In this document: piece by piece, positions 22,059 through 26,182 of the stretch
Numbering within the stretch: the first letter of the stretch is position 1
Layout of the letters: each line of letters starts with the position of its first letter
Source of the DNA: Candidatus Heimdallarchaeum endolithica
GTDB lineage: Archaea > Asgardarchaeota > Heimdallarchaeia > Heimdallarchaeales > Heimdallarchaeaceae
DNA length: 64,000 nt
Assembly (NCBI GenBank): GCA_021513715.1
Contig: CP084167.1
Location: 288,001 to 352,000 of the forward strand
Direction: 5' to 3'
The notes under the pieces: generated by a model
Seen by the model: the letters and a program-made list of their open reading frames with translations, nothing else
Told to the model about the DNA's origin: nothing
The model's database searches: none
Translations under genes and position numbers: made by a program

Positions 22059-23369
22059 TTATTTTAGCTCTGTTTCTTTTTCCTCAATAAATAATTTCTT
22101 AACTTTATCTTCAGTTAAAACGTCCAACTGACTTTTTTCAATAAGTTCTTTTAATGGAGATAAATTTATCTCTTTTAAATGATTTTTAGACAAATCCAAT
22201 ATAGTTAGATTTGTACAGTTTCCCAATGGCTTTAAATCTATCTCTTGTAATTTATTTTCAGACAAATCCAATGCTGTTAGATTTGGACAGCGTGATAAGG
22301 AAGATAAATCAATAGATCGTAAATCATTACTAGACAATTGCAATTCTGTTAGATTTGTACAGTTTGCTAATGGGGTTAGATCTATTGATTGTAAATGATT
22401 GTCCCTTAAAATCAATCCTTTTAGTTTTGTACAGTGTGATAAGGGAGATAAATCAATAGATCGTAAATCATTGCTAGACAAATCCAACCCTTTTAGTTTT
22501 GTACAGTGTGATAAAGGAGATAAATCAATAGACTCTAAATAATTGCTTTCTAAATAATTGCTAGATAAAAGAAACCATTCTAGATTTATACAGTGTGATA
22601 AGGGAGATAAATCAATAGATCGTAAATCATTGTCAGACAAATCCAACCCTTCTAGATTTGCACAGTGTGATAAGGGAGATAAATCAATAGATCGTAAATC
22701 ATTGCTAGACAATTGCAATTCTGTTAGATTTATACAGTGTGATAAGGAAGATAAATCAATAGACTCTAAATGATTGTCCCTTAAAACTAACCCTTTTAGT
22801 TTTGTACAGTGTGATAAGGAAGATAAATCAATAGACTCTAAATGATTGTCAGACAAATACATTTTTCTTAGATTTGCACAGTGTGATAAGGGAGATAAAT
22901 CAACAAATTGTAAATAATTGTTAGACAAATCCAATGCTGTTAGATTTGGACAGTGTGATAAGGAAGATAAATCAATAGATTCTAAATGATTACCAGACAA
23001 AGACAATTTAGTTAGTTTTGGACAGTGTGATAAGGAAGATAAATCAATAAATTGTAAATAATTGTTAGACAAATCCAATGCTGTTAGATTTGGACAGTGT
23101 GATAACGGGGATAGATCTATCTCTTGTAATTTATTTCCATCCAAAGAAAACCATTCTAGATTTACACAGTGTGATAAGGAAGATAAATCAATAGATTCTA
23201 AATAATTACCAGACAAAGACAATTTAGTTAGTTTTGTACAGTTTACTAAGGGAGATAAATCAATAGATCGTAAACCAGTGCCAGACAAATACAATTCTTT
23301 TTCTTCTGTATCTATTTCTTTAATAAATGTTTTACCGTTAACATTTTTTCCTCTTATTTTTATTTTCAT
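22059..23369 (-). CDS. Cytoplasmic leucine-rich-repeat protein A (16 x ~24-aa LRR)
   Basis: 72-bp repeats LxxLxLxxNxLxSIDLSPLSHCxN with N- and C-caps; no signal peptide. Confidence 0.92.
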   Translation of the reverse strand: MKIKIRGKNVNGKTFIKEIDTEEKELYLSGTGLRSIDLSPLVNCTKLTKLSLSGNYLESIDLSSLSHCVNLEWFSLDGNKLQEIDLSPLSHCPNLTALDLSNNYLQFIDLSSLSHCPKLTKLSLSGNHLESIDLSSLSHCPNLTALDLSNNYLQFVDLSPLSHCANLRKMYLSDNHLESIDLSSLSHCTKLKGLVLRDNHLESIDLSSLSHCINLTELQLSSNDLRSIDLSPLSHCANLEGLDLSDNDLRSIDLSPLSHCINLEWFLLSSNYLESNYLESIDLSPLSHCTKLKGLDLSSNDLRSIDLSPLSHCTKLKGLILRDNHLQSIDLTPLANCTNLTELQLSSNDLRSIDLSSLSRCPNLTALDLSENKLQEIDLKPLGNCTNLTILDLSKNHLKEINLSPLKELIEKSQLDVLTEDKVKKLFIEEKETELK

Positions 23370-23443
23370 TGTTAGTAGTTTTATTACTTTTTTATTTTAA
23401 ATATTTTTATTTTATTTAAAGAATTGTATAATCTACGCACGTT

Positions 23444-24251
23444 TGTATACTCCACGCACGTTGGTAAGAAATAAATAGGAAGTGGGTTATGTGGATAAGT
23501 AATAAAACATGAATAAACCCGAACGTAACCTAGAGACTAAGAAAGATTGTGGTTAAAAAAGCTTTGGAAGGAAAAAGGAGAAGATAAAAGAAGTAGCTCA
23601 CAGGTTTATGGTGTATAGGAAGCTTAGATATAAATGGATGGAAAAAGTTAAATTAAAAACTTGAATAAGAATAAGGAAAGGTAGATCTTCCAGACTAAAA
23701 TATACAAAAAAAGTAGATGAAGTGTTAAAAGGAGGATAAGGGAGCTAAGGGTAAAACAAGAAATGAACGTGGAGAAGAAAATAGCTTAACTATTGAAGAA
23801 AGAAGGAAAAAACATTATCCTGAAATGCAATAACTAAAGTAATAGACGAATTAGGTTTTCTTCTGTTAAGTAATAAGAAAAAGAGAAACAGGACTCGATA
23901 CAAGAGATTTGAGCGCTTATCTCCTAACGAACTCTGGTAGTTAGATGGGAAAGGATAATTCTGGGTAGAAGAAAAAGGATAGATTATATCGACTCCTCAT
24001 AACTCTCTTAGATGATCACTCACGATTCTGTCTAGGAGCTAAATCCACCTTAATCTGTATTTTAATATTGGCACAAATATTAATGGTGTTAGTGATCACT
24101 CACGATTCTGTCTAGGAGCTAAATCCACCCCTTTACACCGAAAAAAGAACAGATAATAAGTTTTCTAGAAGAAACAATAGAGAAATATATACAGCTTGAG
24201 TCTATCCTCACAAACAATGGAGCACTCTTCTCCACCGTTAGAGGAACTAGA
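23444..24251 (+). mobile_element. Degenerate IS481-family element, copy B
   Basis: Homologous to copy A from TGTATACT to the same truncation point (ACCGTTAGAGGAACTAG); shares the NELW-TAG stop. Confidence 0.8.
24013..24129. repeat. Perfect 37-bp direct repeat flanking a 43-bp unique insert
   Basis: TGATCACTCACGATTCTGTCTAGGAGCTAAATCCACC at 24013-24049 and 24093-24129; copy A has only one homologous copy. Confidence 0.9.
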
Positions 24252-24334
24252 TTCAATTTTTCAAACATATGTTGCTTTTCTTGGAGAATAACAAAAAAAA
24301 AGTAAGAGTTGTTCTTCTTTGATTCTTGAAGTGT

Positions 24335-26182
24335 TCATATTTTACCTGTTTTATCCCATGTATCAAATTGCTTTTGGAGTTTTTCCAGAGTTTCATCTAT
24401 TTTTTCATGACTCGTTGTACTAAACACAATATATTCTCTATCTACAGTTATAGCATACTCTTCAGGAAGCTGATATAACCAGTTTAAAAAAGCGTCTTCA
24501 TCTGGAAAACCTAATAACGAAGATAACTTCTCTATAGCTATACTCTTTGTACGTTTTATTATTTTTTGAAGTGTTTGTAACCTCTCTTGCTCTTGTTTCA
24601 GCCCTGTTTCTTTTTCCTCAACAAATAATCTCTTAACTTCATCATCAGTGAAAACTTCCAACTGACTTTTTTCAATAAGTTCTTTTAATGGAGATAAATT
24701 TATCTCTTCTAACTGATTATTCCTTAAATCTAATTTTACTAGATTTACACATTTTGCTAATGGGGTTAGATCTATTGATCGTAACTGATTGTTCTTTAAA
24801 TCCAATTCTGTTAGATTTACACATTTTGCTAAAGGGGATAAATCGATCGATTGTAGCTGATTGAGAGACAATGACAATTTTGTTAGTTTTGTACAATGTG
24901 ATAAGGGAGATAAATCAATAGACTCTAAATGATTGATAATCAAAGACAATCCTGTTAGATTTGCACATTTTGCTAAGGGTGATAAATCAATAGATCGTAA
25001 ATGATTGCCAGACAAAGACAATTCTGTTAGATTTGCACATTTTGCTAAGGGTGATAAATCAATAGACTCTAAATGATTGTAAGACAAAGACAATTCTGTT
25101 AGATTTACACATTTTGCTAAGGGTGATAAATCAATAGACTCTAAATAATTGTAAGACAAAGACAATTTTTTTTCTTTTGTATCTATTTCTTTAATAAATG
25201 TATTACCGTTATCCGTTTTTCCTATTATCAGTATTGATCTCTCTTGCCCTAGTTTCAGCTCTGTTTTATTTTCCTCAATAAATAATATCTTAACTTTATC
25301 ATCAGTTAAAACGTCTAACTGACTTTCAATAAGTTCTTTTAAAGGAAATAAATTTATTTCTTCTAAATAGTTGTCCCTTAAATCCAACCATTCTAGATTT
25401 ATACAGTTTGACAAGGGAGATAAATCAATAGACTCTAAATCATTGCCAGACAAATCCAACCCTTCTAGATTTATACAGTTTGACAAGGGAGATAAATCAA
25501 TAGACTCTAAATGATTGCTAGACAAATACAATTCTATTAGATTTGTACAGTTTGACAAGGGAGATAAATCAATAGACTCTAAATGATTGCTAGACAAAGA
25601 CAACCCTTCAAGATTTGTACAATGTAATAAGGGAGATAAATCAATAGACTCTAAATGATTGCCAGACATATCCAATTTAGTTAGATTTGCACAATGTGAT
25701 AAGGGAGATAAATTAATAGACTCTAAATGATTGCCAGACAAAGACAATTCTGTTAGATTTGCACAATGTGATAAGGGAGATAAATCAATAGATCGTAAAT
25801 CATTTCCAGCTAAAAACAATTCTGTTAGATTTACACATTTTGCTAAGGGAGATAAATCAATAGATCGTAAATCATTGCTAGACAAAAACAATCCTGTTAG
25901 TTTTGTACAGTTTACTAAGGGAGATAAATCAATAGACTCTAAATGATTGAAAGCCAAAGACAATTCTGTTAGATTTATACAATGTGATAAGGGAGATAAA
26001 TCAATAGATTCTAAATCATTTTCAGTCAAATCCAATTCTGTTAGATTTATACAGTTTACTAAGGGAGATAAATCAATAGATCGTAAATCATTGTAAGACA
26101 AATCCAATTCTTTTTCTTCTGTATCTATTTCTTTAATAAATGTTTTACCATTATCTTTTTTTCCTCTTATCTGTATTTTCAT
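24335..26182 (-). CDS. Cytoplasmic LRR protein B: two capped LRR solenoids (11+7 repeats) plus C-terminal helical domain
   Basis: N-cap GKxDNGxTFIKEIDT and C-cap PLKELIE each occur twice; 72-bp repeats. Confidence 0.92.
   Translation of the reverse strand: MKIQIRGKKDNGKTFIKEIDTEEKELDLSYNDLRSIDLSPLVNCINLTELDLTENDLESIDLSPLSHCINLTELSLAFNHLESIDLSPLVNCTKLTGLFLSSNDLRSIDLSPLAKCVNLTELFLAGNDLRSIDLSPLSHCANLTELSLSGNHLESINLSPLSHCANLTKLDMSGNHLESIDLSPLLHCTNLEGLSLSSNHLESIDLSPLSNCTNLIELYLSSNHLESIDLSPLSNCINLEGLDLSGNDLESIDLSPLSNCINLEWLDLRDNYLEEINLFPLKELIESQLDVLTDDKVKILFIEENKTELKLGQERSILIIGKTDNGNTFIKEIDTKEKKLSLSYNYLESIDLSPLAKCVNLTELSLSYNHLESIDLSPLAKCANLTELSLSGNHLRSIDLSPLAKCANLTGLSLIINHLESIDLSPLSHCTKLTKLSLSLNQLQSIDLSPLAKCVNLTELDLKNNQLRSIDLTPLAKCVNLVKLDLRNNQLEEINLSPLKELIEKSQLEVFTDDEVKRLFVEEKETGLKQEQERLQTLQKIIKRTKSIAIEKLSSLLGFPDEDAFLNWLYQLPEEYAITVDREYIVFSTTSHEKIDETLEKLQKQFDTWDKTGKI

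Follow-up and report, generated by a model that had tools for sequence, protein, structure and literature searches.

Do two neighboring archaeal genes, built from many similar leucine-rich repeats (LRRs) with variable exposed residues, belong to a programmed system of receptor diversification, or have they arisen by the ordinary turnover of tandem paralogues? The question is raised by gene 1 and gene 2 of Candidatus (Ca.) Heimdallarchaeum endolithica, which lie in a stretch of 64,000 nucleotides (contig CP084167.1, positions 288,001 to 352,000), hereafter the window. The genome, that of strain PR6, is a single contig of 3,326,783 bp and 92.6% complete by markers. From the sequence alone, the original prediction had described a recombination-diversified, possibly antiviral sensor family that resembles the variable lymphocyte receptors (VLRs) of lampreys. 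The underlying observation, namely a conserved scaffold with variable x codons and mosaic units, is correct and statistically real. As to its cause, we find it probable that the two genes are tandem LRR paralogues in a nest of insertion sequences (ISs) and miniature inverted-repeat transposable elements (MITEs), shaped by ordinary duplication, shuffling and gene conversion rather than by programmed diversification.

Architecture and variation of the two LRR genes

The two open reading frames (ORFs) are organized as follows.

22059..23369, minus strand: gene 1, ORF of 436 amino acids; N-cap, 16 LRR units and C-cap, terminating at a TAA where gene 2 has CAA (Gln)
24335..26182, minus strand: gene 2, ORF of 615 amino acids; solenoid A, fusion junction, solenoid B, helical linker and winged-helix C-terminal domain (CTD)
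25283-26182, minus strand: solenoid A of gene 2, 11 units
24623-25237, minus strand: solenoid B of gene 2, 7 units
24344-24598, minus strand: winged-helix CTD of gene 2

Pfam scanning of both ORFs returned essentially LRR families alone above the family thresholds (LRR_8 1.6e-70, LRR_4 1e-54), in addition to weak sub-threshold matches in gene 1. As originally counted, the repeats form 34 units of 24 residues in register (16 in gene 1, 11 plus 7 in gene 2) with the consensus LxxLxLSxNxLxSIDLSPLSHCxN, one of which contains a 15-bp internal duplication. They are arranged in three solenoids, each enclosed by an N-cap (MKIxIRGKxxNGKTFIKEIDT...) and a C-cap (INLSPLKELIE...). Gene 2 possesses two complete capped solenoids, the in-frame fusion of which can be read directly from the sequence: the first C-cap, '...ELKLGQERS', runs straight into the second N-cap, 'ILIIGKTDNGNTF...'. 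Neither LRR protein has a predicted signal peptide, transmembrane segment or hydrophobic segment, in support of the proposed cytoplasmic location.

The AlphaFold2 model of gene 2 residues 316-615 has a predicted local distance difference test (pLDDT) score of 85 overall and 93-96 over the solenoid. Each unit contributes one β-strand at columns 3-5 and a short convex-side helix at columns 17-21, giving the curved solenoid with a parallel concave β-sheet that defines the LRR fold (Foldseek E ~1e-11). Foldseek matched the model best to Leptospira LRR proteins, repebodies/VLRs, internalins and a Roco LRR; the modeled solenoid is a generic LRR solenoid. The model places the strand at columns 3-5, in line with the concave face that had been predicted to carry the variation, but the variable columns 20 and 21 are located in the convex-side helix.

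At the scaffold positions the units favor column-specific codons. Leucine is encoded by CTA at column 1 in 30 of 31 units, by TTG at column 4 in 29 of 31 and by TTA at column 11 in 33 of 34, compared to 16%, 13% and 40% of leucine codons in the genome, respectively; the probability of sharing the same codon at scaffold columns is 0.6-1.0, against 0.25-0.65 expected by codon usage. Such column-specific codons indicate that the synonymous sites are unsaturated and that the units share a recent common ancestry. The framework DNA had been called nearly invariant; its codon preferences do exceed codon usage, but with a proportion of synonymous differences (pS) of ~0.27 across all units it is conserved rather than invariant. 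The codons around the conserved Asn match their earlier description, the preceding one being NNC in 25 of 34 units (4.8 predicted by codon usage) and the following one mostly CAT (13), GAT (9) or TAT (6), and the quoted sub-repeat blocks recur as stated. The x columns of the motif are indeed variable; columns 12, 13, 20, 21, 23 and 24, however, are about as variable, and the variability extends beyond the concave face to which it had been assigned.

Site patterns indicate that the units are recombinant mosaics, as had been proposed. Compatibility among informative sites falls with their distance from each other (PHI-like statistic 0.779 versus 0.920 ± 0.049 in permutations, P = 0.002), and four-gamete violations occur in which states 2-3 nucleotides apart (TCT/GAT at column 5, GAG/CGA at column 12) appear in all four combinations. 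The first and last units are positionally conserved across the solenoids, and the internal units pair mostly within arrays. A block-level duplication test was weak (r = 0.18, P = 0.07), and the longest exact tract common to units is 57 bp, leaving no sign of recent multi-unit duplications. From these comparisons, the arrays appear to be young, having probably grown by unit duplication and been reshuffled by unequal crossing-over and gene conversion.

Comparison of the units further suggests that, after duplication, the x codons changed amino acid faster than the synonymous sites changed. Among 13 independent closest unit pairs, there are 81.5 nonsynonymous against 10.5 synonymous differences, and for the six x columns of the motif the proportion of nonsynonymous differences reaches 0.235, with a pooled pS of only 0.05. 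Maximum-likelihood dN/dS (ω), estimated under the codon model GY+F1X4 on a fixed tree, is 3.13 at the six x columns (twice the log-likelihood difference 12.2 versus ω = 1, p = 5e-4), 1.97 at the other variable columns (12, 13, 20, 21, 23, 24) and 0.25 at the scaffold columns. In four other LRR family members with clean orthologues in the sister species, dN/dS at the concave x columns is 0.05, below the rest of the protein, which points to strong purifying selection at the concave sites of stable paralogues. The predicted excess at these sites therefore holds among units, but neither in stable paralogues nor among alleles (~1.0-1.1, see below). The homogenized, or frozen, scaffold is confined to gene 1 and gene 2, the paralogue nearest to them (at 1900 kb) and a single gene in each of two other genomes of the family, whereas the synonymous sites of the other 13 arrays examined are saturated. 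The genes of those two other genomes, L025 (G006:C261) and L027 (G002:C39), are short, and their units share a nucleotide identity of 0.75-0.78, a pS of 0.27 and an ω of 1.3-2.0 at the x columns. Recent array expansion therefore recurs in this subfamily.

Comparison with other strains and search for a diversification machinery

A set of 5.8 billion proteins contains neither the exact gene 1 and gene 2 proteins nor near-identical full-length alleles, the best matches sharing 37-60% identity, and the alleles were reached solely via a 91-residue CTD ORF described below. A 24-kb contig of a metagenome-assembled genome (MAG; GCA_054387635.1) carries the whole insertion that contains the LRR genes, within an unchanged neighborhood; its two LRR genes again encode exactly 615 and 436 amino acids and keep the unit order. 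The nucleotide identities to PR6 are 98.3% and 98.1% for the LRR genes. Their allelic ω values are 0.90 and 0.98, with ~1.0-1.1 at the x columns, compared to 0.12-0.36 in the neighboring genes, and their synonymous divergence of 0.018-0.019 lies inside the span of values found for the flanks. Over the 3′ part of gene 1 and the flank downstream of it, four more metagenome contigs align colinearly, none with more than one gap. The expected variants in repeat order and number thus did not appear, the unit order and lengths being shared with the MAG contig and the four contigs agreeing over the part of gene 1 that they cover. The colinearity between strains, together with the nearly neutral ratio, argues for ordinary recombination rather than a programmed generator. 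Within gene 1, the allelic differences are clustered, with 11 of 25 in one unit against ~1.5 expected, which points to conversion between units; exact donors were found for the shortest patches only.

A genome-wide nhmmer search with a profile of the 34 units, each 72 bp long, recovered four loci, namely the present one (34 units) and those at 653.9 kb (7), 794.4 kb (8) and 1900.1 kb (15), in addition to one weak match. All four lie inside LRR genes or pseudogenes, two of them with stop codons; the search revealed no orphan units and no bank of donor cassettes such as the one that feeds VLR assembly. VLRs start from an incomplete germline gene, whereas both ORFs here are complete and capped, with 16 or 18 units. 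The genome has no match to APOBEC_N (PF08210), the family searched to represent the AID/APOBEC-type deaminases of VLR systems; other deaminase families were not searched. VLRs also differ between cells or individuals, whereas the MAG contig, in a comparison at the level of assemblies, has the same number and order of units. A diversity-generating retroelement (DGR) works through a reverse transcriptase and a template repeat, and the absence of any reverse transcriptase match (PF00078) in the single-contig genome rules out a DGR reading of the NNC codons. A shufflon or inversion switch is likewise ruled out: the inverted matches are weak and AT-rich with none significant, both genes share one strand, and the nearby serine recombinase sits in a conserved flank that the sister species also keeps without having the LRR locus. 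Since every testable defining feature of such systems is lacking, the proposal of a VLR-like or otherwise programmed receptor system does not hold.

A link to defense fared no better. PADLOC identified no defense genes among both LRR genes and seven neighbors, giving just two weak ATPase matches at 31443-32120; a defense island is ruled out on this result, and the suggested antiviral role and defense-gene neighborhood find no support. The STAND NTPase and effector domain that characterize NLR and STAND-LRR sensors are absent from the Pfam and PADLOC results.

The mobile-element nest, the truncation of gene 1 and the shared C-terminal domain

In the alignment to the sister species, window positions 16000-20766 and 26797-32000 match at 89-90% and abut (G001:86432/86440), which identifies 20767-26796 as a 6.03-kb insertion, located between a NIPA-type transporter gene and an alpha/beta-hydrolase gene. 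It bears the marks of a transposable-element insertion, comprising a 9-bp target-site duplication (TSD), GAGTAAA(G/A)C, a pair of terminal inverted repeats (TIRs; ..GTCTAGTTT / AAACTAGAC..) and an empty site in the sister species. The overall layout is IS-LRR-IS-LRR-IS, with the following parts around the LRR genes.

20758..20766, no strand: left TSD copy, 9 bp (GAGTAAAGC), present as a single copy at the empty site of the sister species
20767..20867, plus strand: left end, with TIR, of an A-type IS-like element of ~765 bp that bounds the whole insertion, recognized from genomic copies
20868..21600, plus strand: B1, degraded IS copy limited to the 5′ 735 bp of the element; ~25 genomic copies at ~80% identity
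23443..24245, plus strand: B2, second degraded copy of the 5′ part of the B-type IS, with an internal insertion of ~80 bp at 24050-24129
26232..26347, no strand: MITE C, 116 bp, TIR GTACTTCCG, TSD TAAATAAA, 49 bp upstream of the gene 2 start codon
26372..26442, plus strand: B3, third B copy reduced to its first ~71 bp, from repeat comparison
26437..26664, no strand: D, a 230-bp dispersed repeat with ~18 copies at ~81% identity
26661..26796, plus strand: right end, with TIR, of the A-type element, from repeat and empty-site comparison
26797..26805, no strand: right TSD copy (GAGTAAAAC), from empty-site comparison

The duplicated flanks of the two LRR genes are 90-95% identical. This identity and the direct IS copies around each gene are compatible with a tandem duplication brought about by IS-mediated unequal recombination. 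Elsewhere in the genome, 6-11 A-type copies of ~765 bp bear both ends and have a 233-residue frame with weak rve matches. Intact B-type copies encode a 312-residue rve (DDE) transposase, with PF00665 above cut-off, and B1 retains a weak match at 21421-21588. D was considered as the 3′ end of the B-type IS, which the positions of their copies do not support. The ~80-bp insertion of B2 is present neither in B1 nor in the contig L041. MITE C is absent from the homologous region upstream of gene 1 and from the other strain, and its absence from that strain indicates that it was active very recently. It has ~25 genomic copies, some 100% identical, and the copies in the sister species are 93-99% identical.

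The stop codon of gene 1 corresponds to a CAA>TAA change relative to the Gln codon of gene 2 and is found in every assembly covering the site, including the MAG contig. Beyond this stop, the former C-terminal part of the gene is still recognizable.

21948..22058, minus strand: linker specific to gene 1, 37 codons, ending in TGA (21948-21950); a 111-bp indel compared to gene 2
21690..21947, minus strand: severed winged-helix CTD of gene 1, seen in the read-through translation and separated from gene 1 by two in-frame stops
21622..21924, minus strand: 303-bp tract identical to 24267-24569 in the pairwise alignment of the duplicated units, covering the CTD and 3′ flank

As the flanks of the 303-bp tract are only ~90% identical, its complete identity indicates recent gene conversion between the copies. 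The severed CTD looks intact, with its start codon absent in PR6. In other strains, it is an intact ORF of 91 amino acids (window 21690-21965; L043:10001-10276; MHA1868456.1), starting at an ATG in the extra linker; the ORF is intact because its sixth codon, TGA in PR6, reads CGA there. Some strains may therefore produce a stand-alone winged-helix protein. The linker TGA, like MITE C, is specific to PR6. Contig L041 changes to B2-like sequence downstream of the identical CTD tract; an assembly chimera is an equally likely explanation to a recombinant, and the contig is not used as evidence.

The constant C-terminal domain of the original prediction proved to be real: 27-28 ORFs in this genome end, at their very C-terminus, with the segment of ~85 residues that closes gene 2. 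The sister genome has 14 carriers, and elsewhere in the phylum 32 of 151 genomes have matches, mostly single ones. With 14 carriers in the sister genome against 0-3 in most other Asgard genomes, the family has undergone a genus-level expansion. Sixteen of the carriers are type-I membrane proteins, composed of a signal peptide, a β-helix, FG-GAP or TSP3 ectodomain, one transmembrane helix and a coiled-coil tail, predicted to be cytoplasmic, that ends in the CTD; the remaining carriers are soluble and of the LRR, WD40 or coiled-coil type. The CTD ORFs are located at G000:C1:611800-640200 (L001, L002) and ~18 other places of the genome and share the end motif ...W-E-x-x-G-x-GKK. The 611800-640200 cluster comprises nine paralogous type-I membrane proteins with β-helix and TSP3 ectodomains. 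A two-gene unit, consisting of a coiled-coil-CTD protein and, immediately after it, an LRR-CTD protein, occurs twice, at G000:C1:481061-482635 (L008) and 789005-790789 (L010), and both have orthologues in the sister species at 87-90% amino acid identity.

The model of the CTD (pLDDT 69) adopts a winged helix with a trailing helix, in the order helix-strand-helix-helix-hairpin and then the C-terminal helix. The fold matches include 9is6_G 'Plant-Complex-C-5b' (Z 8.5), Rpn12 (Z 8.3, root-mean-square deviation (rmsd) 1.6 over 61 residues) and CSN7 of A. thaliana (3chm, Z 7.9); the Rpn12 and CSN7 scores (Z 7.9-8.3) are tied with those of MarR-type regulators (Z 7.5-8.1). A Foldseek search against the PDB gave nothing at E <= 0.001. 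At the sequence level, PF01399 (PCI) weakly matches 11 of 26 members of the CTD family, with a best E of 3.3e-4; the gene 2 CTD itself scores E 0.02 and 15.6 bits, below the cut-off of 22. PCI-like C-terminal domains have been noted in archaeal ESCRT-linked, membrane-associated proteins (PMC10936438).

To the right of the insertion, window 28728-32120 contains a serine recombinase gene (Resolvase N-terminal domain, 4e-20) and, behind it, four ORFs that are small or of unknown kind, one of them weakly matching AAA-ATPase defense models. The sister species and the MAG have both conserved this block, which may be an old integrated element. At window 26340 (L043 ~5820), the identity between PR6 and the MAG changes from 98.3% leftward (from the LRR locus to a 618-residue gene) to 91.7% rightward, the latter side including the hydrolase gene, an IF-2B-family gene and the recombinase. 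This step marks a breakpoint of recombination between lineages, situated where the IS nest ends.

Origin of the locus and its relation to known systems

The nest was inserted in the Ca. Heimdallarchaeum endolithica lineage. In the history that we consider most likely, unequal homologous recombination amplified an LRR gene that lay between direct copies of the 735-bp IS fragment. Two LRR copies would then have fused in frame into the two-solenoid gene 2, and a third would be gene 1, which probably lost its CTD via the CAA>TAA change. Over evolutionary time, unequal crossing-over and gene conversion would have reshuffled the units. The pair would represent a soluble Asgard LRR family, in which gene 2 keeps the PCI-like winged-helix end and gene 1 has been cut off from its own. 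Judging from the domain architecture, gene 2 might act as a cytoplasmic protein-binding adaptor, the concave faces of which bind a ligand while the winged helix docks onto other proteins with the same domain; it is probably under relaxed constraint. Several points weigh against this account. Continuing selection for new specificities would be compatible as well with the ω above 1 among units and with the young arrays in two other genomes of the Heimdall family, recombination is able to inflate ω estimates among units, and the strain comparison comprises two allele lineages. Moreover, the LRR gene could have come to lie between the IS copies by either composite transposition or nested insertions.

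Such continuing selection would be expected of an actively evolving sensor family, in which diversifying selection follows changing viral or mobile-element targets and repeat shuffling supplies the variants, as in plant resistance (R) gene clusters. The ω of ~3 at the x columns among the mosaic units agrees with this, as do the accessory nature of the locus (absent from the sister species and situated inside an IS nest), the birth and death that left two other copies pseudogenized, and the similar young arrays in two other genomes. We nevertheless consider a sensor family unlikely: allelic ω is only 0.9-1.0, or ~1.0-1.1 at the concave columns, with a divergence that does not exceed the synonymous divergence of the flanks, PADLOC found no adjoining defense genes and Pfam no effector domain, gene 1 is truncated in every assembly covering the site, and the concave dN/dS of stable paralogues is 0.05. 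The allelic ω of ~1 in both genes would also suit decaying, functionless passengers of the transposon nest, the ω above 1 being then a relic or a recombination artefact; the two in-frame stops of gene 1 in PR6, the MITE 49 bp upstream of gene 2 and the two further family copies that are pseudogenes point the same way. This is, however, quite unlikely as well, given that the 615-codon frame of gene 2 is open in both strains, that the scaffold columns take just 3 of its ~18 allelic amino acid changes, that the A/T-rich 49 bp beside its start codon are kept, and that an ω of 3 among units is beyond the reach of neutral decay.

A programmed diversity generator, whether by VLR-like cassette assembly, a DGR acting on the NNC codons or shufflon-type inversion, is what a single sequence brings to mind: the NNC codon before Asn (25 of 34 units) is reminiscent of the AAC>NNC pattern that DGR targets show, the modules have 24 residues, repebody and VLR structures are among the fold matches, and a serine recombinase gene lies 2.5 kb away. 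This appearance vanishes once the sister species and a second strain are compared. The single-contig genome has no reverse transcriptase, no APOBEC_N match, no donor cassettes outside LRR genes and no significant inverted repeats around the two same-strand genes, the recombinase belongs to a flank conserved in a sister species without the locus, and the arrays are colinear wherever other assemblies cover them. A generator of this kind is therefore largely refuted, with a very small chance of being correct. It is improbable that the LRR-winged-helix proteins serve an assembly network specific to Heimdallarchaeum as exchangeable adaptors for recognition, the PCI-like CTD docking them on the hub that also receives the cytoplasmic tails of 16 type-I surface proteins and the young mobile copies being selected for new specificities, for example against viruses or mobile elements. 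If true, these proteins would form an innate, germline-encoded sensor set, fed by recombination, in the archaea most closely related to eukaryotes.

Under the preferred reading of tandem paralogues in an IS/MITE nest, the locus represents a dated, well-resolved case of the birth, amplification, fusion, truncation and reshaping of LRR genes, driven by IS-mediated duplication, gene conversion and amino acid diversification of the binding face. LRR proteins are unusually abundant in Asgard archaea, with function unknown (bioRxiv 10.64898/2026.10.28.762692), and the PCI-like tail, which ties soluble LRR proteins to membrane proteins, offers a testable lead to the role of LRR proteins in Asgard archaea. 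The predicted fold of the CTD may be akin to the PCI winged helix of Rpn12, CSN7, eIF3 and proteasome-lid subunits, with MarR-type winged helices scoring equally well. PCI proteins, however, have an upstream helical-repeat part that is without counterpart here, the CTD being joined instead to LRR, WD40 and coiled-coil proteins and to type-I membrane proteins. The same genus, Ca. Heimdallarchaeum, has a mobile element, HeimM2, that codes for an internalin-like LRR peptide and lies between the 16S rRNA gene and tRNA-Arg(TCT) (Wu et al. 2022, PMC8813620). Both cases have an LRR gene within a mobile element, whereas the present insertion is an IS/MITE nest with two LRR genes. HeimM2 is ruled out as the identity of the locus, since tRNA and Rfam scans of the window were empty and the sole 16S gene of the genome is at 2.25 Mb.

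Compared to the VLRs of lampreys and hagfish, the locus shares the 24-residue LRR modules between N- and C-caps and the variable residues on the β-strand face. It differs in that the genes are complete in the genome, the proteins are predicted to be cytoplasmic and the arrays are the same across strains; the donor cassette bank and the AID/APOBEC-type deaminase (sought as PF08210) have no counterpart. The structural matches to Leptospira LRR proteins and internalins are as good as those to VLRs and repebodies: Leptospira LIC12234 (4tzh), Listeria internalins (4fho, 2omw) and the Chlorobium Roco LRR (5il7) superimpose at Foldseek E 1e-11 to 4e-10, with an rmsd of ~2 Å over 165-199 alignment columns. 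These bacterial LRR proteins also have a unit consensus of the same general kind as the LxxLxLxxNxLxxIDLSPLxxCxNL seen here. However, internalins and the proteins of Leptospira are secreted or exposed at the cell surface, whereas the present ones have no signal peptide and end, in gene 2, in a winged helix.

A close parallel in evolutionary pattern is found in plant NBS-LRR (nucleotide-binding site-LRR) clusters such as the coffee SH3-CNL locus (PMC3113787), which likewise consist of tandem paralogues subject to birth and death, with gene conversion between paralogues and a nonsynonymous excess at the exposed residues of the LRR motif. The plant proteins carry an NB-ARC/STAND or effector domain that is absent here, and the excess at the present locus is found among repeat units rather than among alleles, the allelic ω being ~1. 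The locus is, in addition, archaeal and bounded by ISs, and the likeness concerns the evolutionary pattern alone, not immunity. The pattern is one long known from plant R-gene clusters (PMC3113787), here in genes without an immune-type domain.

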